Assembly: GCA_963814585.1 (NCBI GenBank)
Contig: CAWFDF010000003.1
Span: 160,001-224,000 of the forward strand
Source: an uncultured delta proteobacterium
GTDB taxonomy: Bacteria > Myxococcota > Myxococcia > Myxococcales > Anaeromyxobacteraceae
Direction of reading: 5' to 3'
Length of the DNA stretch: 64,000 nucleotides
Shown here: positions 1 through 14,484 of the stretch, piece after piece
Position numbering within the stretch: the stretch's first letter is position 1
How the letters are laid out: every line of letters starts with the position of its first letter
Notes under the pieces: generated by a model
Databases searched by the model: none
What the model was told of the DNA's origin: nothing
Seen by the model: the letters and a program-made list of their open reading frames with translations, nothing else
Translations under genes and position numbers: made by a program

Positions 1-3000
1 GGCGCCGCTCAGCGGCCGCTGCCCGGTGATCCTCAAGACCGACATGACCCACCTGGCCAACAAGGGCGAGGGGCGCGAGCGGATCCTGGCCGGGCTGCTC
101 GACGCCGTCGCCGAGAACGTCGCAGGTGCTGATCAAGCCACGCCGCGGCCCGGCGCGGCTGGCGCTGGCCGGCGGCGTGGCCCGCGCCTCGCGGGTCCGC
201 GACCACTTCGACCGCTTCGCCCGCCGCCACGGCATGGTCCTCGACGGCTCGAGCGCCGACGACGGCCTCTACCTCGACGCGCTGGGCGCGGCCCTGGCCG
301 CCGTCGCCGGCGCGCGCCCGGCCGCCGCCGCTCGCCAGCCTCTTCCAGCCGGCGCCGGAGGGCCCCCTGGAGCGGCTGCCGCCGCTGTCGGCCTCGCTGG
401 CCCGCGTCCGCCGCCTGCCCCGAGCCCGCCGCGGGTGGCCCTCCGGCCGGGCGGCGCGACGCCGTGCTCGGCTTCGACATCGGCTCGACCGGCTCCAAGG
501 CGGTGCTCCTCGACGCCGAGACCCGCCAGCCGCTCTGGGAGGGCTACCTCCGCACCGACGGCGATCCGGTGGGCGCCGCCCAGCGCCTGGTGGAGCGGCT
601 GCTGCGCAGCGAGGCCGCCGCGCCACCGCGTGCTCGGCTTCGGCGCCACCGGCTCGCGGGCGCGAGATCGTCGGCTCGCTGCTGGCCACCTGCTACGGCG
701 GCGAGCGCGGTCTACGTGCTCAACGAGATCGCCGCCCACGCCGCCGGCGCGCTCCACGTCGACCCGCGCGTCGACACCATCTTCGAGATCGGCGGCCAGG
801 ACGCCAAGTACATCCGGCTGGACGGGCGGGCGCGTCGTCGACGCCGCCATGAACGAGGCCTGCTCGCGCCGGCACCGGCTCCTTCATCGAGGAGCAGGGC
901 GAGCCGCTTCCAGGGCGTCGAGACGTGACCCAGCTGGGCGAGGAGGCGCTGGCCGCCGCCGAGGGCGTGTCGCTCGGCCAGCACTGCTCGGTCTTCATGG
1001 CCGAGGTCATCGACGAGGCGGTGGCCGCGGGGCGTGGCGCGCGGCGCCGATCATGGCCGGGCATCTACGACTCGGTGATGGCCAGAACTACCTGAACCGC
1101 GTCAAGGGCACGCGCTCGGTCGGGCAGGTCATCTTCTGCCAGGGCATGCCCTTCGCCTCCGACGCGCTGGCCGCCGCGGTGGCGCGCCAGACCGGCGCCG
1201 AGGTGATCGTGCCGCCGCGCCCCGGGCTACAGTGGGCGCCATCGGCATCGCGCTGCTGGCGGCGGCCGAGCTGCCGCTGGCGGGGCGCGGCGCCCGCCGA
1301 CCTGGCGCGCCTTCCTCGCGGCGCGGGTCGACGCGCAAGGACCAGCTTCGTCTGCAAGTCGACGCAGGGCTGCGGCGGCGCCGGCAACAAGTGCCGCATC
1401 GACCGGCTGCACACCGACGTCGGGGGCGAGGCCAGGCGCTTCACCTGGGGTGGCGGCTGCTCGCTCTACGACCAGGGGACCCGGCCAGCGCAAGCTCCCC
1501 GACCTGGCGCCCGACCCGTTCCGCGAGCGGCGACGCCCTGGTGGCGGAGGTGGTGGACGGGCTGCCGCCGCCGCGGCGGGCGGCGGCGTGGTGGCGCTCA
1601 CCGACGAGTTCCAGCTCAAGGGGCTGCTTCCCCTTCTTCGCCACCTTCCTCCACGGGCTCGGGCTCGACGTGGCCGTGCGCGCCGGGCGCGCGACCAGGC
1701 CGCGCTCAAGCGCGGCATCGAGGAGGCGCAACGTCCCCTTCTGCGCGCCCATGCAGCAGTACCACGGCCTGGTCGCCGGCCTGGCCGAGCGCGGCCACGA
1801 CCTCCTCTTCGTGCCCGCTGCTGCGCGACCTGCCCCGGGTCGCCGGCGAGCGCACCTCCGCGGCTCTGCCCGATCGTGCAGGCGAGCGCCGGACATGCTG
1901 CGGCTCGGACCTCGGCCGGCCGAGGCGTCGGCGCGGCTGCTCTCGCCGGTGATCGACATCGGGCCGGAGGGCCTGGATCGAGCGAGTTCCTCGAGCGCTC
2001 CTGCCGGCGCGCTGGCCGCGTCGCTCGGCGTCGACCGGCGAGGCGGCCGTGGCCGGCGGCCTCTCGGCGGCGCCGCGCCGCGCCAGGCCGGCTTCGACGC
2101 GCGGCTGCCTGGCGCTCGGGCAGCGCGCGCTCGACTTCTGCCGGGCGCACGGCGTCACGCCGGTGGTGGTGCTCGGGCGCAGCTACACCATCCACAACGA
2201 CGTGCTCAACTCCAACGTGCCGGCCATCCTGCGCGAGCAGGGGGCCATCGGCATCCCGCTCGACTGCTACCCGGTGGCCGACGACGCGCCGGTCTTCGAC
2301 GACGTCTTCTGGGGCCACGGCCAGCGGATCCTGCGCGCCGCCCGGCAGGTCCGCCGCACCCCCGGCGTCTACGGCCTCTTCTGCTCCAACTACTCCTGCG
2401 GCCCCGACAGCTTCACCTCGCACTTCTGCGCCTACCTCATGGAGGGCAAGCCGTTCGCGGTCATCGAGACCGACGGCCACTCCGGCGACGCCGGCACCAC
2501 GACCCGCGTCGAGGCCTTCCTCCACTGCGTGCGGGAGGACCTGCGCCAGGGGCGCGGCGCCGAGCCCAACGACCCGGCCCGGCTGAACGTGCCGCGCCGG
2601 ACCCTCGGCGACGTGGCCGCGCGCGGCGAGCGGGTGCTGGTGCCGCCCATGGGGCCCGAGGCCGAGGCGCTGGTGGCCGGGCTGCGCGGGCTGGGGGTGG
2701 CGGCCGAGCTGCTGCCGCGCCCGACCCGCCAGACGCTCTCGCTGGGGCGGCGGCAGACCTCCGGCAAGGAGTGCCTGCCGCTGACCATCACGCTGGGCAG
2801 CCTGCTGGAGCGGCTGGAGCGGGCCGGACCCGGGGACCGGGCGCTTCGCCTTCTTCATGCCGGGCTCCGACGGCCCGTGCCGCTTCGGCGCCTACCGGCA
2901 GCTGCAGCAGCTGGTGCTCGACCGGCTCGGCTGGCGGGAGCGGGTCGCCATCTGGTCGCCGCCGCTGGGCGACTACTTCCGCGGCCTGCCGCCGGGCTTC

Positions 3001-3870
3001 GCCGCCATCGTCTACGCCGGCTTCTGCGCCTACGGGGCGCTGGAGGAGGCGCTCCACGACGTGCGGCCGGTCGAGGCCAGCCCGGGGGCCGCCGAGGCCA
3101 TCCACGCCGGCGCCTCGGCGCGCCTCTCCGCGCTGGTCGAGACCGCGGTGCGCGGCGACCTCTCGGCGGCGGCGGTGCTGCGCGAGGTCTCCACCGGGCG
3201 GGTCTGGTCCATCCCGCGGCTGGTGAACGAGGCGGCGCTGGCGCTGGCCGCCGTCAAGTCGCCGCGCCGCGTCCCCAGCGTGCTCCTCTCCGGCGAGATC
3301 TACGTGCGCTGCGACCCCTTCGCCAACGGCGAGGTGGCGCGGGCGCTGGAGCGGCGCGGGCTGCGCGTCAGGCTGGAGCCGCTCTCCGAGTTCATCCAGT
3401 ACACCGACTGGGTGGCGTGGAAGCGCGGCTGGAAGAGCGGGCTGCTGGCGCGGCTGGACCGCTGGCTGCGCGACCGGATCCTCCACCGCTGCCACGCCGC
3501 CGCGGCCGGGCCGCTCGGCCTGCCGCCGCCGCCGCCCATCGGCGACGCGGTGACCGCGGCCGGCGACTACCTGGACCACCACGTCGAGGTGGAGACCCTG
3601 CTCACCATCGGGGTGCCGGTGCGGGCCTGGCGCCGGGGCGAGGTCGACGCGGTGGTGAGCGTCGGGCCGCTGGAGTGCATGCCCAACAAGCTGGCCGAGG
3701 CGCAGCTCCACCACGTCGCCGAGCGCGAGGGGCTGCTCTCGCTCACCCTCTCCCTCAACGGGGACCCCCTCGACGAGGCGGCGCTCGACGGCTTCGCCTT
3801 CGAGGTGCACCGGCGGTTCGGCACGCCGGACGTGGTAGGGGTGGAGCCATGTCAGCCCCCGCCCCGCTGA
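1..3870 (+). CDS. Large acyl-CoA dehydratase activase-like protein (BadF/BadG/BcrA/BcrD ASKHA ATPase domains + DUF2229/dehydratase-like C-terminal part); 5'-partial, many apparent frameshifts in 1-2860
   Basis: Family motifs appear in the correct order but in shifting frames: ILKTDMTHLANKGE, GFDIGSTGSKAVL, LNEIAAHA, TIFEIGGQDAKYI, DAAMNEACS, FCQGMPF, VVLGRSYTIHNDVLN, NYSCGPDSF, ETDGHSGDAG, TSGKECLP, GPCRFGAY, GPLECMP. The last segment (2857-3870) is open. Confidence 0.75.
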
Positions 3871-4718
3871 GCTTCGAGCGGCCGCCCGCAGTCTGGCCGT
3901 GGCTGGCCAGGGCGGTCCTCTCCAGGCGGCCATCCCTGCTCGCCCCCGGTGAGACCATCCCGGCGCTGGAGGCCCGCCTGGCGCCGGCGGTGCCCGACAC
4001 CGCCCACCTCGAGGCCTACCGCGAGCTGTGCGGCTTCGAGCCCGACGAGCGGCTGCCCATCACCTACCCGCACGTGCTGGCCGGCTCGATCCACCTCGCC
4101 CTGCTCACCAGCGAGCGCTTCCCGCTCAAGGTGCTGGGGCTGGTCCACCTGCGCAGCCGCATCGAGGCCCGCCGCGCCATCGGCCAGCTCGAGCCCATCG
4201 ACCTGCGCTGCCGGGTCGACGGCCACCGCGAGACCGACCGCGGGCAGGAGTTCGACCTCCTCACCGAGGCCCGCGCCGGCGGCCAGGTGGCCTGGACCGA
4301 GACCTCGACGCTGCTGGCGCGCCGCCCCGGCTCCCGACCGCCTCGCCCGCCGCCCGGCCCGCTGGCGCCCCCCGGGGCCCGCGCCGCCGAGTGGATCCTG
4401 GGCGCCGACCTGGGGCGCCGCTACGCCAGGGTCTCCGGCGACTACAACCCCATCCACCTGAGCGGCGCCACCGCCCGCCTCTTCGGCTTTCGGCGCGCCA
4501 TCGCCCACGGCATGTGGACGCTGGCCCGGGCGGCGGCCGAGCTCCAGCCGCGGGTGGCCGGCGGCGCCACCGTGCTCGACGTGGCCTTCAAGCTGCCGGT
4601 GCTGCTCCCCGGCCGCGTCTGGTTCCGCGAGTGGCCGGAGGCGCGCGGCTTCGGCTTCGCGCTGCTCGACGCCGCCGGCGAGCGGCCCCACGCGGTGGGG
4701 ACGTTCGGGGCGGCGTAG
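3849..4718 (+). CDS. MaoC-family (double hotdog) acyl dehydratase / (R)-enoyl-CoA hydratase
   Basis: ATG at 3849 (MSAPAPLSFE). Hydratase motif YARVSGDYNPIHL...AIAHGMW, plus FKLPVLLPG. Overlaps the end of the upstream activase gene. Confidence 0.85.
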   Translation: MSAPAPLSFERPPAVWPWLARAVLSRRPSLLAPGETIPALEARLAPAVPDTAHLEAYRELCGFEPDERLPITYPHVLAGSIHLALLTSERFPLKVLGLVHLRSRIEARRAIGQLEPIDLRCRVDGHRETDRGQEFDLLTEARAGGQVAWTETSTLLARRPGSRPPRPPPGPLAPPGARAAEWILGADLGRRYARVSGDYNPIHLSGATARLFGFRRAIAHGMWTLARAAAELQPRVAGGATVLDVAFKLPVLLPGRVWFREWPEARGFGFALLDAAGERPHAVGTFGAA

Positions 4719-4865
4719 GGGCGGCGGGGCGCCGGGCGCGTGGAGACTGCCGGGGCGCCGTCGAGGACGTACGCCATCCGCGACCATGGCGTCTTCGCCC
4801 GGCGCGCCGGAGCCGGCCTGGTCCCCGAATCGGCGCCCAGGCCCGGCCGGCGTTAGCTTCCCCCC

Positions 4866-5564
4866 ATGTCCAAGCCCGAGCGCCCCTGGATCGTCACCCC
4901 CCACCGACCCATCGTGAAGCACGAGACCAACCTCTGGACCGTGGACGGGCGGCTGCCGGGGACGTCCGTCCCGCGTCGCATGGCCATGGTGCGGCGCCAG
5001 GACGGGACGCTGGTCTTCTATCACGCCATCCCGCTCGCCGAGGCGGCCCTGGCCGAGGTGCTGGCCTGGGGCCGGCCGGCCGAGCTGGTGGTGGGAAACG
5101 CCAGCCACGGCGCCGACGCCGACGCCTTCGCCAGGAAGCTGGGGGTGAAGATCTACGGCCCGCGCGCCGACGCCCCGCGGATGCGGGCCCGCTGGGAGCT
5201 GGCCGGCGCGCTGGAGGACCTGCCGGTCGATCCCACCGTCACCTTCGAGTCGGTGGCCGGCACCAAGGCCGGCGAGCCGGTCGAGCTGGTGCGGAGCGGC
5301 GACCGGCTCAGCCTGGTCTTCTGTGACGCCCTGCAGAACCATGGTGAGGACGGGCCGCTCATCACCCGGCTCCTCGGCTTCCGCGGTGGGCCGCGGGTGG
5401 TGCCGATCTTCAAGCTCCTCTTCACCAGCGACCGGGCGGCCCTCAAGGCCCACCTGCTCCGGCTCGCGGACCTCCCCGGGCTGGCACGGCTCATCCCCTG
5501 CCACGGCGCCATCGTCGAGCGCGACGCGCCGGCGGTGCTGCGCCAGGTGGCGGCGGGGCTCTGA
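4866..5564 (+). CDS. Metallo-beta-lactamase-fold protein (DUF4336-like)
   Basis: RRMAMVR..DGTLV, N-x-x-H (NASHG), LVFCD and RLIPCHG, matching the DUF4336/MBL-like pattern. Confidence 0.65.
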   Translation: MSKPERPWIVTPHRPIVKHETNLWTVDGRLPGTSVPRRMAMVRRQDGTLVFYHAIPLAEAALAEVLAWGRPAELVVGNASHGADADAFARKLGVKIYGPRADAPRMRARWELAGALEDLPVDPTVTFESVAGTKAGEPVELVRSGDRLSLVFCDALQNHGEDGPLITRLLGFRGGPRVVPIFKLLFTSDRAALKAHLLRLADLPGLARLIPCHGAIVERDAPAVLRQVAAGL

Positions 5565-5582
5565 CCGCGCGGAGGGGAGGCC

Positions 5583-5820
5583 TTGCCGATCTGGTTCGTC
5601 AGCGTGCTGGTCGACGGCCAGGAGGAGGCGCTGCGCCTCGACACCGGGGGGCTCGGCTTCACGAAGATGGCCGGCCTGCTCCTCGGCCAGGGCCAAGTCC
5701 TCCGCGGCGACGACGGGTTCGGTCCCGCAGTGGCGGGCGCCAGCAGGAACTCGAACCACGACGCCGACGTCATCGTCATCGGCTCCGGCATGGGAGGGCT
5801 GACCACCGCCGCACCCCACG
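5583..5820 (+). pseudogene. Fused gene remnants: VOC/glyoxalase N-terminus followed by a FAD-binding Rossmann N-terminus
   Basis: SVLVDGQEEALRLDTGGLGFTK resembles the VOC consensus SVxVDDQxKAxxFYTxxLGF. DADVIVIGSGMGGLTTAA is a GxGxxG dinucleotide-binding start with no continuation. Confidence 0.5.
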
Positions 5821-5966
5821 ACGGGTGCGGCACCGTGTCGCAATATACGCTGGAATTTCCTGTACTTGGACGCCACGGAGGTGTCGATTCGACTTGCGGT
5901 TCCATAGGGCCCGATTACCTGAGGTGGATGTTCCGTTGGCTTCAGCGGTGCGGGCGTTCCAGGGGC

Positions 5967-6641
5967 ATGGTGCTGGCGGTCCTCGCCGCGGCCATGGTCG
6001 GCCTCGTTCCCTCCAGCGCCACGGCCGACGCCGGCGGGCTGGCCTTGCGCCTCGACCCGACGATGGCCTCCGACCCCGCCAGGCCGGCCCCTCCTCCCGG
6101 CGCCCTCCGGGGCGCCCTGGAGGCGGCGCCACCGGACGCCGGCGCGCTCGACTTCGATCTGCTGGGCGAGGCCCCGGCGCCCACCGCCGGCCCGGACGCC
6201 GGTGCGCTCAGGACCCGCCGCACCATTCTCACGCTCCACCAGGGGCTCGGCATCGGACTGGTCGGCCTCTCGGTGGCGACCGTGGCCGTCGGCCAGCTCG
6301 ACTACAACGACAAGTTCAACGGTGGGCCGAACACTGGCAAGTACCGCGCGCCGCACGCGGTGCTCGCCTACACCACGGCCGGCGTCTTCGCCGTCACCGG
6401 CCTCACCGCGCTCCTGGCCCCGTCGCCGGTCGAGGCCCCGGCGACCCTGGATTGGGTCATGGTGCACCGCATCGCCCTCTTCACGGCCACCGCGGCCATG
6501 GCCGCCCAGGTGGGGCTGGGGATCTACACGGCCTCGCGCGAGGGCTACGTCGACCAGGCCGGCGTCGCCAAGGTCCACCTCGTCCTCGGCTACGTCACGC
6601 TGGCCGCCATCGCCGCCGGCGTCGGCGCGCTGGTCTTCTAG
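5967..6641 (+). CDS. Membrane protein with signal-like N-terminus and 4 His-bearing TM helices (possible b-type cytochrome)
   Basis: Four hydrophobic segments, each starting with His: LTLHQGLG, APHAVLAY, MVHRIALF, KVHLVLGY. Adjacent to a YceI gene. Confidence 0.55.
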   Translation: MVLAVLAAAMVGLVPSSATADAGGLALRLDPTMASDPARPAPPPGALRGALEAAPPDAGALDFDLLGEAPAPTAGPDAGALRTRRTILTLHQGLGIGLVGLSVATVAVGQLDYNDKFNGGPNTGKYRAPHAVLAYTTAGVFAVTGLTALLAPSPVEAPATLDWVMVHRIALFTATAAMAAQVGLGIYTASREGYVDQAGVAKVHLVLGYVTLAAIAAGVGALVF

Positions 6642-6649
6642 GAGAACTG

Positions 6650-7216
6650 GTGACCTCCCTCCTGCTCGCCCTGACGCTCGCCACCGGTGGCCCGGCCACG
6701 ACCAGCTGGGTGGTCGACCCGGCGGCCAGCACGGTCCGCTACCGGGTGGTCCACAAGCTCCACCAGGTCGACGGCGCCTCGAGCCGAATCGAGGGCAAGG
6801 CGTCGGTGCAGGCCAACGGGCACGTCATCACCATGCTCCGTGCACCCATCGACTCCTTCGACTCCGGGGATCGGAACCGGGACTCGCACCTGCTGGAGGT
6901 CATGGAATCGGCCACCCATCCCTTCGTGGTGGTCAAGGCTGCCGGGGCGCTGCCCCCGGGGACGGCGACGGTCGGTGCCCCGGCCTCGACGGCGCTGCTC
7001 CAGCTCGACGGGGCGGTCGAGTTGCACGGGGTCAAGCAGCCCATCTCGGTGCCGGTCGAGCTCGAGGTCCGCGGGGACGGCTCGGCACGGGCCCGGGGCG
7101 GCTTCGACGTCAGCCTGGAGGCGCATCGCGTCGAGAGACCCTCGCTGCTCTTCGTGAAGGTCGAAGATCGCTGCCGGATCGAGTTCGACCTGGCGCTCCA
7201 GGTGGCCTCGCCGTGA
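6650..7216 (+). CDS. YceI-like lipid/polyisoprenoid-binding exported protein
   Basis: GTG after GGAGA. Signal peptide, then WVVDPAASTVRY, SFDSGDRNRDSHL and VELHGVKQPI, typical of YceI. Confidence 0.85.
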   Translation: MTSLLLALTLATGGPATTSWVVDPAASTVRYRVVHKLHQVDGASSRIEGKASVQANGHVITMLRAPIDSFDSGDRNRDSHLLEVMESATHPFVVVKAAGALPPGTATVGAPASTALLQLDGAVELHGVKQPISVPVELEVRGDGSARARGGFDVSLEAHRVERPSLLFVKVEDRCRIEFDLALQVASP

Positions 7217-7641
7217 ACTGGATCGCCGCCACCGGGTTCTTGCTCCTGGCCGGCTGCATCCCGGAAGAGGGTCCGATGATGTCGCCCGGGGAGGACTGCC
7301 TCACCTGCCACCAGGGCGGCGAGGCCAGCCGGTGGAGCGTGGCCGGGACCGTCTACCCCGGCCTCGACTCGCCCTCGTTTGACGGCCTCCACGGGGCCAC
7401 CGTCACCGTCACCGACGCCACCGGGCGGACCATCTCGCTGCTGACCAACCTGGCCGGGAACTTCTACCTGGCCGACCCGCTCACCTTCCCGCTCAGCACC
7501 TCGGTGGCGGCGGGTGGCCAGACCCGGACCATGGGGGTGGCCGTCGCCTACGGGGGCTGCAACAGCTGCCACCGCCGGCCGGGGCGGGGGTGGGTTACGC
7601 CGTTTGCCCCGCCGTCGGCCGCGCTCGGGCCGGACGGCTAG
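7213..7641 (+). CDS. Small di-heme c-type cytochrome lipoprotein
   Basis: GTGA overlap with yceI-like gene. Lipobox LAGC and two CxxCH motifs (CLTCH, CNSCH) flanking a beta-sandwich-like segment (GATVTVTDATG...TNLAGNFY). Confidence 0.75.
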   Translation: MNWIAATGFLLLAGCIPEEGPMMSPGEDCLTCHQGGEASRWSVAGTVYPGLDSPSFDGLHGATVTVTDATGRTISLLTNLAGNFYLADPLTFPLSTSVAAGGQTRTMGVAVAYGGCNSCHRRPGRGWVTPFAPPSAALGPDG

Positions 7642-7727
7642 CCCCGCGGCCCGGTCCCGCCGTCCACCGTCGCCGAGTTCCCTCCGCTTCACCCGCAGCC
7701 AACCATCACCCGCATCGAGGTGCTCAC

Positions 7728-8426
7728 GTGAACCACCAGCCTGCCGCCGCCACCGCCTCCCGCCGTGCCGCGCCCTCCCCGTCGCTACCCTCCACCCGCT
7801 TGCTCTCCTCCGCCCTGGTGGGCGTGGTCGGGGCCGGCGGCCTGGCCGGCTGCACCAAGTCGGCCAATCCGGTCGACTGCGCGGCACCGACCTACAACAA
7901 CACCATCACCGGGACCCCCACCAACCCCATCCCCGCCGACCTCGCGGAGTTCACCGCCAGGTGCGACGCCCGGGGTGGCTTCGTCCAGACCCACGCCTGG
8001 TGCGCGGGCGCCAACAGCTGCAAGGGGCTCTCCCTGAGCTTCGGCGTGCTCACCGACCACTCCTGCAAGGGCATGAACACCTGCGAGGGGTTCAGCTGCG
8101 TCGACGGCGTCACCGACAAGGGCCTGACCGGCGCCTCCATCTACGCCACCTCCTGCAAGGGCTGCCACGGCGACGGGAAGTTCGTGGTCCTGGCCAGGGC
8201 CGGCAGTGCCGCAGAGCGGCTGGCGGCCTTCCAGGCCACCACGCCCGAGAACGCGCTCCGCCTCCTCTCGGTCGTCGCCTTCGGCACCCAGGGCCAGAAC
8301 GCCAACGGGACCGGGTACGCCAACATGCCCATCTTCAGGCAGCAGCTCTCCCGCCCCGAGCTCCAGCGGGTGGTGGACTACGCGCGAGCCCTCCCCGCCG
8401 AAGCCGCCGAGTACGTGGCCTGGTAG
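7728..8426 (+). CDS. Putative MNIO substrate: lipoprotein with bufferin-like Cys-repeat domain fused to a cytochrome c domain
   Basis: GTG after GAGGTG; lipobox LAGC (Cys42). Two CxGxNxCxG repeats (CAGANSCKG, CKGMNTCEG), then GASIYATSCKGCHG, a distal Met (ANMPIF) and LSRPELQRVVDY, typical of class I cytochrome c. Directly upstream of DUF692. Confidence 0.75.
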   Translation: MNHQPAAATASRRAAPSPSLPSTRLLSSALVGVVGAGGLAGCTKSANPVDCAAPTYNNTITGTPTNPIPADLAEFTARCDARGGFVQTHAWCAGANSCKGLSLSFGVLTDHSCKGMNTCEGFSCVDGVTDKGLTGASIYATSCKGCHGDGKFVVLARAGSAAERLAAFQATTPENALRLLSVVAFGTQGQNANGTGYANMPIFRQQLSRPELQRVVDYARALPAEAAEYVAW

Positions 8427-8436
8427 GCGCGGGGCG

Positions 8437-9318
8437 ATGGGGGCCCCGTCACCTGGTCCGACGGGGCCGTTGACCTCGCCGGGTCGCCAGCTCGATCCCC
8501 TGGCGCGCCGCGTGGCCCGCGACGCGCTCGGGATCGGCCTGCGACCGCAGCACTACCCCGAGTTCTTCGAGCAGTGGCCGGAGCTCGGCTACCTGGAGAT
8601 CATCAGCGACAACTTCATGGGGGCCGCGGCCCTCCCGCTCCGGCACCTGGAGCGGTTCCGGGAGCGCTACCCGATCGTGCTCCACGGCGTCGGCCTCAAC
8701 CTCCTGGGCGAGGCGCCCCTCGACGAGGCCTACCTCGACCGGCTGGCGCGGCTGGCCGACCGCGTCGACGCCCCGTTCGTCACCGATCACCTCTGCTGGA
8801 CCGGCGCCCACGGCATCTCGCACCACGACCTGCTCCCCGCCCCGTACCTCCCCGAGCTGGTCGAGCTGGCGGCCGAGCGGGCCGCGGCGGTCCAGCGGCG
8901 GCTTGGGCGGCCCTTCGGCATCGAGAACCTCTCCACCTACCTGGAGTTCACCACCTCGACGATGACCGAGTGGGAGTTCTACACCTCGGTGGTGAAGGCC
9001 TCGGGCTGCTGGTTCATGCTCGACGTCAACAACGTCTACGTCTCCAGCGTCAACCACGGCTTCGATCCCCGCGCCTACCTGCGCGCCATCGACCCCTCGA
9101 GGGTGCTGCAGGTCCACCTGGCCGGGCACTCGGTGGAGGCCGACGGCACCATCGTCGACACCCACGACCACCCGGTCTGCGACGAGGTCTGGCGCCTCTA
9201 CGCCGAGACCTGGCGCGCCGGCGGGCCATTCCCCACCCTGCTCGAGTGGGACGGCCGAATCCCGCCGCTGCGGGAGGTGGTTGGCGAACTCGAGAAGGCG
9301 CTGGAGGTCCGCCGGTGA
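8437..9318 (+). CDS. Multinuclear non-heme iron-dependent oxidative enzyme (MNIO, DUF692/UPF0276; MbnB/TglH/BufB-like)
   Basis: GIGLRPQH, EIISDNFM, HGVGLNL, TDHLCW, ENLSTY, LDVNNVY, VHLAGH, DTH and LLEWD: the full DUF692 iron-ligand set. Confidence 0.95.
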   Translation: MGAPSPGPTGPLTSPGRQLDPLARRVARDALGIGLRPQHYPEFFEQWPELGYLEIISDNFMGAAALPLRHLERFRERYPIVLHGVGLNLLGEAPLDEAYLDRLARLADRVDAPFVTDHLCWTGAHGISHHDLLPAPYLPELVELAAERAAAVQRRLGRPFGIENLSTYLEFTTSTMTEWEFYTSVVKASGCWFMLDVNNVYVSSVNHGFDPRAYLRAIDPSRVLQVHLAGHSVEADGTIVDTHDHPVCDEVWRLYAETWRAGGPFPTLLEWDGRIPPLREVVGELEKALEVRR

Positions 9319-10193
9319 CGGCCCGGGTAGCCCCTCCCTGGCTCTCCGAGCTGCAGGCGGCCTTCGGCGCGCTGCTGCAGAGACCCCTCGACAGGTCCAC
9401 CGGGACGCTGCGGGCCCGCACCGAGGACTACCGGCACGGGCTGGTCGCGCTGGTCAAGCCCGGCTCTGGCCTCGACGCCGGGGGGCGGCTGGCCGTCTAC
9501 CACCGCCAGTACTGGTTCCGGCTGCTCACCGCCTTGCAGGACGACTTCCCGCTGCTGGCCCGCCTGCTCGGCTTCTGGGAGTTCAACGGCTGGGCGGCGC
9601 GGTACCTGGTCGAGGCTCCCCCCGGTGGTTCGAACCTGCAGCGCGCCGGCGACGCCTTCCCCGCTTTCCTCCAGGCCGTCACCGGCCCGGGGTGGGTGGG
9701 CGGAGCGGGCGGCGACCAGATCCCGCGCGCCGCCCTGCTGGAGGCCGCGGCCATCGACGGGGCCTGGCGGGCGGTGCTGGCGGCGCCCGCCGAGCCGCCC
9801 CTCGAGCCGGCCGGGATCGAGGCGTCCAGCTGGCCCTCGCTCCGGCTGCGCCCCCGGGCCTGCTTCGCCGTCGTCGAGGAGCACTGGCCGCTCTGCGAGC
9901 TCCGGCGGCGGCTGGCCGGGCTGCCGGTCGAGCGGGCGGCGCCGCTGCCGCCGCGCCACGGCTCGGCGCGCTGGTTCCTGGTGGGCTGCACCGGGGCCTC
10001 GGTGCTGGAGCGGGAGCTCGGGCCGCTCCAGGCCCGGCTGCTGCGCCTGCTGGGCGAGCTCCCGGTCGGGCAGGCCCTCGCCAGGCTGGAAGCCGGGTGT
10101 GACGAGGCGGCGCGGCGCGACCTGCCCGGGCTGGTGGAGCGCTGGCTGGCCGAGGCGGTCGGCCTCGGCTACTTCGCCGGGGAGGCACGTTGA
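9315..10193 (+). CDS. DUF2063-family MNIO partner protein (HvfC/BufC-like, RRE-type substrate recognition)
   Basis: GTGA overlap with DUF692. LSELQAAFGALL...RLAVYHRQYWFRLLTALQDDFPLLARLLG...FPAFL. Confidence 0.85.
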   Translation: MTARVAPPWLSELQAAFGALLQRPLDRSTGTLRARTEDYRHGLVALVKPGSGLDAGGRLAVYHRQYWFRLLTALQDDFPLLARLLGFWEFNGWAARYLVEAPPGGSNLQRAGDAFPAFLQAVTGPGWVGGAGGDQIPRAALLEAAAIDGAWRAVLAAPAEPPLEPAGIEASSWPSLRLRPRACFAVVEEHWPLCELRRRLAGLPVERAAPLPPRHGSARWFLVGCTGASVLERELGPLQARLLRLLGELPVGQALARLEAGCDEAARRDLPGLVERWLAEAVGLGYFAGEAR

Positions 10194-11776
10194 CCCCCTC
10201 GCCGGCACCGGCGACCGGCGAGCCGCCGCTCGGGACGGCCGTACCGGTGCGACGCCTCCTCCTCGCGCTCGACGGCTTCGAGCCGACCGGAGGCGGACTC
10301 TCCCCCTTCGTCGAATTCCTCCTCCGGATCAGGACCGGGCTCACGGCCTCGGACCAGGCGGCGGTGCGCCAGGCTGCCGGCGAGGTGCTGGCCCACCCCG
10401 GCGCCGCGACCAGCGGTCCGTGGGCCATCGCGTTCGCGCTGCTCCTGGCCGCACCGGCACCGGCCTCCGCCCTGGCCCGCTGGCGCCGGGAGCGCTGCGC
10501 CGACCCGGGCCCGCTCCGCGCCGCCGCCGGCCTGCTCGACGCCGTGGTCGCGGAGCTGGCCACCTCGTCACGCCCCTTGCTGCAGATCGACACCGGGACC
10601 ACGCTGGCCGATCCCTGGCGTCGCTGGCTCGGCGAACGACTGGAGGCGGACCCACGGGTCGCGCCGGCCCACACCCGTGACGGCGCCGGGCCCGGCCAGG
10701 CCCTCGTGGCCGGATGGCCGGAGCAGCCGCTGCTGCGGAGGTTCCTCCTCGCCGCCGCCATGTGCGGCGAGGCGTCCCCCGCCCACCCCCTCCTCTCGGC
10801 CATCGGGGTCGGCCCGGACGACCTCGACGGCGCCGTCGACCTGATCGACCAGCGGCTCTGCGGCGAGGGGGGCGAGGACGGCGGCGTGTTCCTCGACGAC
10901 CTGGGCTACCAGCACCCCGGCTTCCCGGGCCTCCTCACGTATCGCTTCGTCGACCCGGCGCTGCGCCAGGGGATCCTGGCGGGTGAGGCCCCAGGGGCCG
11001 TGGCCGGTGAGGCGCGGCGGCTGCGCATCGCCGTGCGGTCCCGCCTGGAGGTCACCACCCGGGCCATCGCCCAGCTCTACGCCAACCTGGGCGGGCTGGA
11101 GGGTCCGCCGGCTGGGGACGGCCCCCGACGGCGGCTTCGCCTCTGGGTCGGCGAAGCCGACGAGGCCAGCCTCGCCGAGACCCTGGCCGAGGAGCTGCGC
11201 CGCGGCGCCGCCGCCCCGCGTGCCCTCCTCGCCACCGCCCTCCGCGACGGCGCGCTTGCCACCCCTCAGCGGCTCGCGCTGCTGGCCGCGGCGCAGGACC
11301 GGGCCGAGGCGGCGGAGCCGGAGCTGGCCCTCGCCATCCACGTGGCCCGGACCCGGCTGCTCCACGAGGCCGGTCGCCTGGACGATGCCGGGCGCAGCGC
11401 CGCCGAGGGACTCCGCTGGGCCGAGGTCCACGGGGAGGCCGGCGACGGCGCCCTCCTCTTCCTCGCGGCCCGCTGCCACCGTGAGCAGCGGCGGCTGGAG
11501 GCTGCGGCGCAGGCCTTCACCGACGCCGCCGGCGTGGCCTCGCTACCGGATCCGGCCGGGAGGGTCAACTGGCACGACCTGGGGGTCTGCCTCGCCGAGG
11601 CCGGGCGCTGCCACGCCGAGCGCGGCGACTGGACCGCGGCGATCCAGCTTCTCGGCGAGGCGGCCATCCACCTGCGGCGCGGCGACCTGGGCGGCACCGT
11701 CCACCGGGATCAGCTGGATCTGGTCCTGAGAAACTTGGCCTCGTGCACGGCCCAGCGCCTGGGGCTCCGGCGGTAG
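10190..11776 (+). CDS. Hypothetical protein with C-terminal TPR-like helical repeats
   Basis: TTGA overlap with DUF2063 and GGAGG RBS at 10181. C-terminal helical repeats (LFLAARCHREQRRLEAAAQAF; LAEAGRCHAERGDWTAAIQLL). Confidence 0.55.
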   Translation: MTPSPAPATGEPPLGTAVPVRRLLLALDGFEPTGGGLSPFVEFLLRIRTGLTASDQAAVRQAAGEVLAHPGAATSGPWAIAFALLLAAPAPASALARWRRERCADPGPLRAAAGLLDAVVAELATSSRPLLQIDTGTTLADPWRRWLGERLEADPRVAPAHTRDGAGPGQALVAGWPEQPLLRRFLLAAAMCGEASPAHPLLSAIGVGPDDLDGAVDLIDQRLCGEGGEDGGVFLDDLGYQHPGFPGLLTYRFVDPALRQGILAGEAPGAVAGEARRLRIAVRSRLEVTTRAIAQLYANLGGLEGPPAGDGPRRRLRLWVGEADEASLAETLAEELRRGAAAPRALLATALRDGALATPQRLALLAAAQDRAEAAEPELALAIHVARTRLLHEAGRLDDAGRSAAEGLRWAEVHGEAGDGALLFLAARCHREQRRLEAAAQAFTDAAGVASLPDPAGRVNWHDLGVCLAEAGRCHAERGDWTAAIQLLGEAAIHLRRGDLGGTVHRDQLDLVLRNLASCTAQRLGLRR

Positions 11777-12328
11777 CGCTCCCGGGCCGGCCTGCCGCGG
11801 AACCAGTAGAGCCGAGTCTCCGAAGTCCGCGCTATCGGACTCGATCGGCGGATTGAATGACCTTCCCCCGTTGCGGGACAAGGGCCTTGGCGGCCTGCAT
11901 GAACTGACTGTCGAGCCTGGCACCCCGAGCGCCCACCAGGGTCAGCACTGGCTCGGGAAACGCGGCAATCGCCGCGGCGTGCTCTCGGAGCGTGGCCAGG
12001 CACTCCTCCGAGCCGAGGTTTCGCGAGTCAATCTACGTGGTGCTGTGACCCCGGCGCTCGACCCAGCTCACGTCCACGGAGGGCCCCGGGACCCGAACCT
12101 CGCACCTCAGGTGAAGGCGCGTCCGGTCCCGCGTACGTCAGACGTCGGCGGAACGACTTGCGAGAGGACAGGCCGGGATCTCCAGCGGCGCCCGGATCCC
12201 GGGGGCCATGAGGGCGCCGCCGAGCAGGAACGGCCGCCACCGCAGCGCTGCTCCGGAGCGGGCCGCGCCCCCTCGATGCGCGTCAAGGCGAGGTCGCAGG
12301 GGAGCGCCAGGGTGGACACCAGGACCCG

Positions 12329-13639
12329 CTACTCCCGTCTGCTGCCGTGGCGCCACGCACCCATGGTGAAGCTGGCGACGCCGATGGCGACCAGGATTGC
12401 GCACGGGAGCGCCACCTGGGCCGGGGTGAAGCCGCGCCAGACGGCCCCCTCCAGCGCCAGGATGGCCCACTTCACCGGCGAGACCGTCCCGGCTGCCTGC
12501 ATCCAGGCTGGCATGGCGAGGAGCGGCACCATACCGCCGCCCAGCATGGTGAGCGGCATCATGATGGCCCAGCCCAGCCCGCTGGCCGCCTGCTCGGTCT
12601 TCCCCATCGCCGCCACCAGCATCATGATCCCAACGAAGCAGGCGGCCACCGAGAGCGCCGCCGCCGCGGCCAGCCCCCACGACGACGGGCGCACGCCGAA
12701 GCCGAGCCCTCCCACGGCGAACAGCAGCGCCTCGACCGCGACGATGGCCGTGAAGCAGGCCAGCGCCTTGCCTGCCAGGACGTGGCCGGCCGAGAGCGGC
12801 GAGGCCCGCAGCCGGGTGAGCGTGCCGCGAGTCCGCTCCTGCACCAGCGAGAGCGCGAACCCGAGCGAGCAGCCGATGACGCCCCAGATCATCCCCTGCG
12901 GAAAGGTGACGTCGAAGGCGCTGGCCGGCCCGGCCCGATCGGCTCTCAGCTCCCGCCTCCGGATCTCCAGTGGCTTCCAGCCACCGACCGCCGACGCGTC
13001 GCCACCCGCGGCGCCACCCGACGACGCCGGCTGGCCGTCGATGAAGGTCCGCACCTCGCCGAGGAACCGCTCCGTGGCCGTTCGCTGAGGGCCTGCTGGA
13101 GCGTCGGCGAGGTCGGCGAGCGCGGTGCTCACCATCCGCCGCGAGTTCTCGCCGCCGGCGAAGAGCGCCTGCAACGACTGCATGGCGGCGCCCGTGAGGA
13201 TCCCTTCCAGCATGGCGGCCTCGGCAGCGCGCGCTGGGTCGACGGCCAGCTCGAGCGTGCGAGGCGCTCCGTGGAAGAGCCGCCCCTCGGCCTCCTCATA
13301 CCCTCTCGGCACGATCACCGCCGCGGTGAGCTTCCCGGCGCGGACCCGGGCCTCGGCCTCGGCGCGCGGGAGCAGCGTCACCTGCACGCCCTCGGTGGCC
13401 GAGAGCCGGGCGACCAGGGCCAGCGCGGCCGGGGAGCCGTCCTCGTCGACCGCGCCCACCTGGATCCGGCCGCGCTGCCCGCCGCCCCCGAAGATCAGGC
13501 CGAAGAACAGGGCGATCAGCACCGGCCAGCCCAGCGAGAAGAAGAGCGCGGCGCGGTTGTGGAGCAGCAGGCGCAGGTCCTTCACGGCCAGCGCCACTAC
13601 CGGCCGCAGCACCGACGAGATGGGGAGGGGGCCGATCAT
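12329..13639 (-). CDS. ABC-2 type transporter permease
   Basis: N-terminal TM, large extracytoplasmic domain (VDEDGS), LVQERTRGTLTRLRASP and five further TMs. Confidence 0.9.
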   Translation of the reverse strand: MIGPLPISSVLRPVVALAVKDLRLLLHNRAALFFSLGWPVLIALFFGLIFGGGGQRGRIQVGAVDEDGSPAALALVARLSATEGVQVTLLPRAEAEARVRAGKLTAAVIVPRGYEEAEGRLFHGAPRTLELAVDPARAAEAAMLEGILTGAAMQSLQALFAGGENSRRMVSTALADLADAPAGPQRTATERFLGEVRTFIDGQPASSGGAAGGDASAVGGWKPLEIRRRELRADRAGPASAFDVTFPQGMIWGVIGCSLGFALSLVQERTRGTLTRLRASPLSAGHVLAGKALACFTAIVAVEALLFAVGGLGFGVRPSSWGLAAAAALSVAACFVGIMMLVAAMGKTEQAASGLGWAIMMPLTMLGGGMVPLLAMPAWMQAAGTVSPVKWAILALEGAVWRGFTPAQVALPCAILVAIGVASFTMGAWRHGSRRE

Positions 13640-14484
13640 TCGTCGCGCAGCCTCCGCCCGGTCAGCTTGAGGAACACCTGCTCCAGGCTCGGCCGCTCCA
13701 CGTGGAAGTCGTCGACCCGGGCCTCGGCCGCCAGCCGCAGCAACGCGCCGGCCGGATCCGCGGTGGGGAACCGCCGCACCTCGCCGCCCACCTTGGCCAC
13801 CAGCACCGGCGCATCGCCGTGGAGCCGGATCAGGCTGGGGACCGTGTCGAGCGCCAGCACCCGGCCCTGGTCGACGATGGCCACCCGATCGCAGAGTCGC
13901 TCCGCCTCCTCCATGTAGTGGGTGGTGTAGACCACCGTGAGCCCGGACCGCCTCAGCTCCACGATCCGGTCGAGGATGGCATGGCGCGACTGCGGATCGA
14001 CGCCGGCGGTCGGCTCGTCGAGCAGCACCAGGCGCGGCTCATGGAGCAGCGCCGCGGCCAGGTTGAGCCGGCGCTGCATGCCGCCGGAGTAGCCGCCGAC
14101 CCGGTCGCGGCGCCGGTCGCGCAGGGCGGCGAAGTCGAGCGCCCAGTCGATGCGGGCCTCCAGGGCCACGCCGGCCAGGCCGTAGACCCGGCCGAAGAAG
14201 CGCAGGTTCTCCTCGCCGGTGAGCTCGGCATAGAGGGCCACCGCCTGGGGCGCCAGCCCGAGGTGGCGCCGCACCGCCGGGTCGGTCGGTGCGCCCAACC
14301 CGTCGATGGCGACGGTGCCGGCGTCCGGGGCCAGCAGCCCGAGGGCGAGGTGGACGGTGGTCGACTTGCCGGCGCCATTGGGGCCGAGCAGCCCGAGGAC
14401 CTCCCCGCGCTGGACCCGCAGGGAGAGGCCGTCCACGGCGACGGTGGCGCCGTAGGCCTTGCGCAGGTCGGTGAGCGCGAGCAC
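13636..14484 (-). CDS. ABC transporter ATP-binding protein (DrrA/CcmA-like exporter)
   Basis: Walker A GPNGAGKST, YSGGMQRR signature, LLDEPT, TTHY. GTG start at 14484 is preceded by a TACAGT -10-like box. Confidence 0.92.
   Translation of the reverse strand: MLALTDLRKAYGATVAVDGLSLRVQRGEVLGLLGPNGAGKSTTVHLALGLLAPDAGTVAIDGLGAPTDPAVRRHLGLAPQAVALYAELTGEENLRFFGRVYGLAGVALEARIDWALDFAALRDRRRDRVGGYSGGMQRRLNLAAALLHEPRLVLLDEPTAGVDPQSRHAILDRIVELRRSGLTVVYTTHYMEEAERLCDRVAIVDQGRVLALDTVPSLIRLHGDAPVLVAKVGGEVRRFPTADPAGALLRLAAEARVDDFHVERPSLEQVFLKLTGRRLRDE

Follow-up and report, generated by a model that had tools for sequence, protein, structure and literature searches.

The DNA analysed here (the window) is a stretch of 64,000 nucleotides from an uncultured member of the Anaeromyxobacteraceae (assembly GCA_963814585.1, contig CAWFDF010000003.1, positions 160,001 to 224,000). 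It holds an open reading frame (ORF 7728-8426) for a predicted lipoprotein in which a domain bearing conserved cysteines and histidines (the Cys/His domain) is fused to a cytochrome c domain, followed by genes for an MNIO (DUF692) enzyme and its DUF2063 partner (Table 1). On the best reading of the sequence, these three genes form an operon of the bufferin or captophorin type with a two-domain substrate. The fusion family is real and conserved and is apparently undescribed, and its features suggest a copper site of modified residues connected to an electron carrier, not a simple copper sponge.

The fusion family and its MNIO partners

A single-sequence search recovered 11 proteins, and the profile built from them recovered 96 clusters (50% identity) at E<=1e-30 and 227 at 1e-10. 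Counts out of 157 refer to the single-sequence matches plus the best 150 of the 227 profile clusters. The window protein and 96 others spanning both domains were aligned (97 rows); the other 60 of the 157 are stand-alone Cys domains, fragments and unrelated cytochromes. The fusion family comprises about 100 clusters at 50% identity. All 97 aligned fusions have Cys79, Cys92, Cys113, Cys119, Cys124, Cys143, Cys146 and His147, while Met200 is present in 96 and Cys98 in 95, and the full set of ten Cys and heme sites is intact in 94. Such near-invariance argues that the architecture did not arise by chance. His111 is kept in 93/97 and His89 in 74/97. The heme motif has CxxCH spacing in 87 sequences; in the other ten (e.g. 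L006, L009, L016 and P0011) three to five residues separate the cysteines, and the His and Met are retained.

The gene itself starts with GTG, has a G+C fraction of 0.96 at third codon positions and is preceded by GAGG; a promoter scan found none. The product is predicted to be a lipoprotein: the lipobox Cys is aligned in 92/97 fusions (the remaining five are gapped), is preceded by G, A or S in 89/96, and follows the hydrophobic core motif in 61/96. The initial annotation had placed the ORF, lipobox Cys42, two CxGxNxCxG units (CAGANSCKG, 8001-8027; CKGMNTCEG, 8064-8090), the CKGCH motif, the Met of ANMP and the DUF692-DUF2063 pair, and all of these coordinates are right. Its count of seven further pre-heme cysteines (Cys51, 79, 92, 98, 113, 119 and 124) is correct for the window protein and fails as a family trait: Cys51 occurs in just 23/97 fusions and was ruled out as a family residue, so the domain has six conserved cysteines.

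Named records come from Myxococcota (Anaeromyxobacter, Cystobacter and Polyangiales) and from Oligoflexus, and two cultured species, Cystobacter fuscus and Oligoflexus tunisiensis, are carriers. The spread is patchy, with a strong match in 13 of 401 phylum genomes (12 of these with the fusion) and weak, cytochrome-only matches in 11 more. Some fusion variants (P0012, P0047 and L035:1129-2238) have PF11617 (MopE-like) repeats and an EF-hand-like insert preceding the Cys domain.

Linkage to the MNIO gene is strict for the fusions of named genomes. Of 24 named-genome loci, sixteen carry the fusion, and the MNIO gene lies directly downstream in all 16, with a DUF2063 gene in 15 (in the other the contig ends). 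The remaining eight have the Cys domain alone, and in five of them the locus includes an MNIO-DUF2063 pair. In the phylum sample, which overlaps the named-genome set, 12 of 13 fusion genes are inside an MNIO operon; the genome of the thirteenth (L035) has a second copy with an MNIO. Of 48 metagenome loci, 29 bear the fusion. Among these 29, an MNIO gene is directly downstream in 12, an MNIO and/or DUF2063 gene is upstream within about 3 kb in 6, neither gene is nearby in 4, and seven are too short to judge.

No separate BufA2-like precursor emerged when six-frame translations of window positions 3001-14000 and of 20 loci were searched with the profile of canonical BufA2, and a small precursor as the MNIO substrate was dropped as a candidate on that ground. 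The sole non-fusion match was a stand-alone paralog in L038 and L052, lying in L052 between the fusion gene and the MNIO gene. With the MNIO gene next to every named-genome fusion and no alternative BufA2-like ORF, the fusion protein is very probably the MNIO substrate, as first suggested. Such fusions do recur beside DUF692, a point that had been suggested for checking, as the same 16 loci show. Two contrary outcomes, homologs mostly lacking DUF692 and a separate small precursor, were looked for and neither was seen.

Nine residues that hardly vary among 53 MNIOs, and that we take to be the iron ligands, are intact in the window MNIO: His83, His118, Glu163, Asp196, His227, Asp241, His243, Glu270 and Asp272. 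The last Asp of the MNIO ligand set acts as the catalytic base (10.1101/2025.11.18.689057). In four relatives the NF050167 score of the MNIO straddles the cut-off of 310, with two clearly below (286.6 and 299.4), one just below (309.2) and one above (312.1). Buf2 partner proteins combine DUF2063 with a C-terminal RRE; the window partner matches DUF2063 and has no NCBIfam match. In a quick tree of the 53 MNIOs, for which seven loci gave no full sequence and the canonical set came from one order only, a split with support of 100 in the Shimodaira-Hasegawa-like approximate likelihood ratio test separates 28 canonical BufB2 from 20 fusion-linked and 5 stand-alone-linked enzymes, the last two mixed together. 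Next to the catalytic Asp, on its C-terminal side, 28/28 canonical BufB2 have Asp or Glu, and the position varies in fusion-family MNIOs (Gly in the window). The window genome's two MNIOs fall on opposite sides of this branch, and the genome has a canonical buf2 operon (L025:605-3365, G000:C12) with BufA2 at 72.9 bits, BufB at 379 bits and a DUF2063 gene. That operon is preceded by a gene without a Pfam match and offers a useful internal control.

The Cys/His domain and its cytochrome

The initial annotation had likened the two repeats to BufA2 and suggested a profile search as a check. The window protein scores 21.2 bits with NF050166 (BufA2), below the cut-off of 60, but profile-profile comparison aligns residues 90-127 with the canonical BufA2 core at a probability of 95.7% (E 1e-8). 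The likeness is therefore one of homology, and the domain is not a plain BufA2, being below cut-off, rearranged and supplied with extra His. Cys92, Cys98, Cys113 and Cys119 align to BufA2 CysI, CysII, CysIV and CysV, and CysIII is absent. The canonical terminal element (helix-CysVI-xx-KGG-strand) resembles the start of the fusion's Cys domain, with a weak match there in direct profile comparison (E 0.01). The CysVI context scores highest at Cys79 in 72/97 fusions, and of 6541 background Cys windows 0.7% attain the median score. The helix comes first in the predicted structure of the fusion and last in the canonical BufA2 model, itself of low confidence (predicted local distance difference test, pLDDT, 65), and the fusion domain departs from the order CysI-VI, in which the helix Cys comes at the end. 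By alignment, the domain is homologous to BufA2 but not a member by score or Cys order, and it looks like a permuted BufA2.

Two pseudo-symmetric units make up the domain. Each begins with a His (His89 and His111) that canonical BufA2 lacks. Stand-alone Cys domains share these residues (His111 in 43/46, His89 in 30/46). Four heme-less lipoproteins (P0098, P0105, P0129 and P0147) repeat the permuted domain two to four times in tandem. In another set of loci (L017-L024, L110 and L113-L120) a stand-alone permuted domain has a long low-complexity tether, and its gene is often convergent with the MNIO-DUF2063 pair rather than upstream of it.

Covariation was analysed by a mean-field method on 140 sequences (121 effective, a modest depth) with eight re-paired controls. 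The covarying pairs V86-F122 and Q87-S123 set Cys124 beside the strand after the Cys79 helix, which predicts a Cys79-Cys124 disulfide and leaves the four loop cysteines free. This pairing is the most likely one; linear homology to BufA2 would imply Cys79-Cys92 instead. Buf2 has four sites of -4 Da and one disulfide, -18 Da in total (PMC11626156), which is the count predicted for the fusion domain, and by analogy Cys92, Cys98, Cys113 and Cys119 would be the thiooxazole sites.

The second domain of the window protein exceeds the PF13442 cut-off. An AlphaFold2 model of residues 42-232 has a pLDDT of 87.8 and a predicted template modelling score of 0.82, and the structural matches listed for its cytochrome domain are all c-type cytochromes (cytochrome c6, Kustc0563), the best with Z 7.9 and a root-mean-square deviation of 2.2 over 68 residues (best Foldseek E 0.014). 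These point to a His/Met class I cytochrome c with His147 and Met200 as presumed ligands. Five PF01578 matches over cut-off indicate that the genome has a cytochrome c maturation system. Searches of solved structures gave no match for canonical BufA2 and nothing but cytochrome matches for the fusion protein, searched whole; a protein atlas look-up returned only generic cytochrome clusters, all below 0.9.

The two domains appear to be joined in a fixed way. The Cys124-Cys143 linker has 18-19 residues in 64/97 fusions, whereas the stretch between the lipid Cys and the Cys/His domain varies from 8 to 183. The inter-domain pairs F85-L180, A95-A198 and T88-N191 rank 1, 4 and 8 of all covarying pairs (z 7.6, 6.7 and 6.0), among intra-domain pairs that make plausible contacts (D130-R214 and G189-Y197, for example). 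Ala95 sits in the Cys92-Cys98 loop, and Ala198 is two positions ahead of Met200, which argues that the first Cys loop packs on the hairpin of the distal ligand. The second Cys loop perhaps packs there too, given a weaker pair (N117-G196, z 4.4). On the model, the Cys/His and cytochrome domains form one unit. A co-fold of the Cys domain, cytochrome domain and heme scored 0.16 against a mark of 0.32 and bears neither way.

A proposed redox-coupled copper site and its alternatives

We propose a mechanism in which conversion of four cysteines to 5-thiooxazoles creates a copper site that is redox-coupled to the heme; judged as a whole, it stands evenly balanced between right and wrong. In the cytoplasm, the MNIO-DUF2063 pair would convert Cys92, Cys98, Cys113 and Cys119 (most likely) by chemistry like that of BufBC. 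Sec export, lipidation of Cys42, formation of one disulfide (most likely Cys79-Cys124) and heme attachment at CKGCH would follow, to judge from the motifs and fold. The thiooxazole thiols, together with His89 and His111, may bind copper in loops that, from the covariation, would pack on the Met200 hairpin. The heme would then exchange electrons with the copper, in the simplest case reducing the Cu(II) that is captured to Cu(I), which is bound more tightly. The protein would be a membrane-tethered, redox-coupled copper handling station, passing copper to and from YtkA-like chaperones wherever they occur.

The potential of the Cu(II)/Cu(I) couple is 0.15 V. For Buf1, the affinities are about 6e-15 M for Cu(II) and about 7e-20 M for Cu(I) (PMC11626156). 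A hand calculation from these affinities and this potential would place such a site at about +0.44 V, with the proviso that Buf1 is another subfamily. This is within reach of a His/Met heme, and we favour redox-coupled copper handling over the alternatives below.

YtkA-like genes are among the neighbours, and CtaK/YtkA is implicated in CuA assembly (PMC13344008). They occur in 8/16 named fusion loci, by a profile seeded by six of these eight genes; six of the eight exceed the Pfam cut-off and two fall short of it. They are present in 0/8 stand-alone loci, 0/30 canonical loci (with short flanks) and 6/29 metagenome fusion loci. In one genome (G204) the single YtkA match directly precedes the fusion gene.

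Several observations weigh against this proposal. Half of the named fusion loci (8/16) are without a YtkA-like gene, as is the window locus, the genome's one YtkA match being elsewhere; two fusion-bearing genomes have no YtkA match at all. Four of 22 informative metagenome fusion loci (L088, L097, L098 and L107) have neither MNIO nor DUF2063 gene despite at least 0.9 kb on each side, although L107 is arranged like L108 and L121 and may be truncated ahead of the MNIO gene. The MNIO must also spare the fusion's CKG-containing heme motif, which is like its target motif. His89 is replaced in 23/97 fusions. The covariation is of modest depth, and the re-paired controls, with a maximum z of 2.6, lower inter-domain scores by design and so flatter the result. 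Finally, the Cys domain lacks a downstream heme motif in 46/157 proteins and in 8/24 named loci, so it functions without heme, and one protein (P0116) keeps the cytochrome and has lost most of the Cys domain.

A bolder proposal, which is plausible yet on balance doubtful, is that the family is a new class of heme-copper redox protein with a cofactor of the ribosomally synthesised and post-translationally modified peptide (RiPP) kind. Four thiooxazole thiolates and two His would hold mono- or dinuclear copper, loaded by a dedicated YtkA-like protein and wired via the Met hairpin to heme c, as a membrane-located electron-transfer centre or enzyme. If true, this would be the first MNIO product serving as a redox cofactor and not as a metal scavenger.

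In an alternative reading, the protein would be a catalytic metalloenzyme, its thiooxazole/His copper being a permanent, YtkA-loaded cofactor that turns over O2, peroxide, NO or a sulfur compound while the heme relays electrons. The rigid packing that places the Cys loops next to the Met ligand, the two conserved His not found in canonical BufA2, and redox neighbours such as DUF3570, di-heme peroxidases and RegB/RegA-like pairs would suit such a role. We consider it unlikely: no conserved fourth gene names a substrate, stand-alone domains retain the same His, and the solved-structure searches gave none with such a site.

A passive copper sink is a further alternative to which we give little weight. 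The protein would be a membrane-tethered bufferin, its cytochrome a stabilising or independent passenger uncoupled from copper. The characterised MNIO-DUF2063 products are all peptides that sequester copper (10.1101/2025.11.18.689057; PMC11626156), the two forms of the domain, fused and stand-alone, occur in one MNIO branch and can share an operon (L052, L090 and L101), and heme-less tandem repeats of the domain exist (P0098, P0105, P0129 and P0147). A mere passenger sits poorly, however, with heme ligands that are invariant across proteins of 28-70% identity, with a linker of 18-19 residues in most fusions beside a variable spacer, and with a covarying interface. The window genome, moreover, already has a canonical buf2 operon, and a heme protein is a costly sink.

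An ordinary lipoprotein cytochrome, whose six cysteines form three disulfides while the MNIO targets something else, would suit the even number of cysteines, the BufA2 score below cut-off and the few loci without an adjacent MNIO gene, but is improbable given strict MNIO adjacency over two phyla, loop cysteines homologous to those of BufA2, a distinct MNIO branch and no other candidate substrate.

Known systems and neighbouring genes

Bufferins are defined in 10.1101/2024.03.18.585515 and PMC11626156, and captophorins in 10.1101/2025.11.18.689057 and PMC13097082. Buf2 (BufA2B2C2 of Caulobacter vibrioides; BUF_6/12Cys; NF050166/NF050167) shares with the fusion operon the order precursor-MNIO-DUF2063, a BufB-type MNIO, six cysteines, two CxGxNxCxG units, a signal peptide and the lack of doxX. 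The fusion differs in having the helix-Cys-xx-GG-strand element at the front and not at the end, in missing CysIII and gaining Cys124, and in its hairpin between the units, two conserved His and cytochrome c; its MNIO sits on a separate branch, without the fixed acidic residue after the catalytic Asp. In the accessible part of PMC12452194, MerC is the only Buf2 fusion named, about 16% of Buf2 are predicted lipoproteins, and the first mining took in precursors of fewer than 200 residues.

The closing remark of the initial annotation, that the architecture was not known to have been characterised, stands in that we found no description of the family, but Buf1|Cytochrom_C fusions and lipidated bufferins are already in print (PMC12452194, PMC13056109). 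Buf1|Cytochrom_C and Buf1|Cytochrom_C|FGE-sulfatase fusions are listed as a few instances, in silico (PMC12452194, Fig. 3 legend). They likewise join a bufferin-type domain to a class I cytochrome c; by the published description they are set apart by a four-Cys DUF2282 domain, whereas the fusion family is lipid-anchored and numbers about 100 clusters. DUF2282 has no match at E<=1 in the window protein or 8 relatives, and the two supplementary spreadsheets of PMC12452194 that were searched gave no match to the family. Lipidated MNIO products, the DAG-RiPPs DybA and NedA, share with the fusion a lipoprotein signal, assigned in the latter by pattern and conservation; as described in the accessible text they are short and without a redox domain, and their mining range of 50-160 residues leaves the fusion family out of range (PMC13056109; preprint PMC12636315). 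A term search of the accessible text of PMC13097082 found no occurrence of the word "cytochrome"; published captophorin datasets may list family members. The captophorins Oxazolin/HvfA and fontiphorin resemble the fusion system in the MNIO and DUF2063 pair and the expected 5-thiooxazole chemistry, but have EGKCG repeats where the fusion sequence has none and a folded domain with heme instead.

Each ingredient has precedent; for a rigid unit of heme and modified copper with a chaperone neighbour we found none. Our literature search, thin on subscription journals, turned up neither an account of a permuted Buf2-like domain with His nor one of its fusion to a cytochrome. CuA-cytochrome c pairs provide an analogy: in subunit II of caa3 oxidase, a membrane-anchored Cys/His copper site lies beside a class I cytochrome c and is served by a YtkA/CtaK-type assembly factor. 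This is not homology, as the fusion is without a cupredoxin fold, no oxidase subunits lie nearby, and its ligands would be enzyme-made heterocycles.

Characterised MNIO-DUF2063 products read as copper sponges, and a protein with heme plus thiooxazole, if true, would be a redox-active metal site in a folded protein. The heme could serve as a built-in spectroscopic reporter of Cu(II)/Cu(I) cycling at the thiooxazoles, allowing a one-protein test, and the same protein could test how an MNIO selects target cysteines yet spares CxxCH. The size limits of precursor mining (<200 and 50-160 residues) overlook a whole family.

Table 1. Predicted features of the fusion locus, in window coordinates.
Feature	Position	Strand	Remarks
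Membrane protein, four hydrophobic segments with a conserved His at the start of each; accessory	5967..6641	+	No Pfam match; start uncertain
YceI-like protein; accessory	6650..7216	+	PF04264 57.6 bits; also adjoins the fusion in L001 and L032
Small predicted lipoprotein, two CxxCH motifs; accessory	7213..7641	+	Near the fusion in few loci, mostly found without it
Fusion precursor	7728..8426	+	232 aa; lipoprotein signal, spacer, permuted BufA2-like Cys/His domain, class I cytochrome c
Signal peptide with lipobox LAGC	7728..7853	+	Cys42 at 7851-7853; hydrophobic core LLxAALAGL-like, family-conserved; pattern-based
Cys/His domain, residues 72-125	7941..8102	+	Cys79 helix; units H89-x2-C92-x5-C98 and H111-x-C113-x5-C119; then Cys124
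Class I cytochrome c domain	8127..8393	+	CKGCH 8154-8168; distal Met200 8325-8327 (ANMP); inserted hairpin 187-200
MNIO (DUF692), BufB type	8437..9318	+	PF05114 322.8 bits (over cut-off); NF050167 MNIO_BufB 317.5 (cut-off 310)
DUF2063 partner (BufC/PME1 type)	9315..10193	+	DUF2063 55.7 bits (cut-off 27.2); start overlaps MNIO stop

Throughout the family, the conserved genes are the fusion, MNIO and DUF2063 genes, with no conserved fourth gene. The neighbour loci are not independent draws, and the fusion neighbourhoods may simply be copper or redox islands. DUF3570, a flavinylated part of extracytosolic electron-transfer clusters (PMC8238504), occurs in 13/29 metagenome fusion loci and in none of the named-genome loci. 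Di-heme peroxidases are found in L012, L101 and L103, MbnP in a few loci, and RegB/RegA-like pairs, below their cut-offs, in L002, L004, L005, L010 and L094. One subclade (L103-L108 and L121) has a larger cluster, with DUF3570, DUF2271 and two unnamed CxxxxCH lipoproteins between the MNIO pair and the fusion. Cys-rich helical proteins with a twin-arginine (Tat)-like signal come right after the fusion or operon in three loci (L103:5703-6158, L108:4714-5226 and L094:6533-6994). They have no Pfam match, and we take them to resemble copper storage proteins (Csp-like).

Upstream in the window, the three genes of 5967-7641 (four-His protein, YceI and di-heme lipoprotein) could form a transmembrane electron path. 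The four-His pattern is presumably cytochrome b561-like, and the protein falls in unnamed atlas clusters at 0.94-0.96. The di-heme lipoprotein family has no name; 34 of the 91 family genomes encode a member, in most cases without a fusion gene. This trio was rejected as a core part of the system, being present only in close relatives and two metagenome loci. Downstream, a tetratricopeptide repeat-like gene (10190-11776) overlaps the DUF2063 stop and is common only to L001.

In L004 (1596-5700), genes for a Rieske protein, cytochrome b and a cytochrome bd-like/cytochrome c protein lie immediately upstream of the fusion operon. At the start of the window (1-3900), an acyl-CoA dehydratase activase-like region appears split over several frames, possibly through sequencing errors, in contrast to the intact genes that come later.

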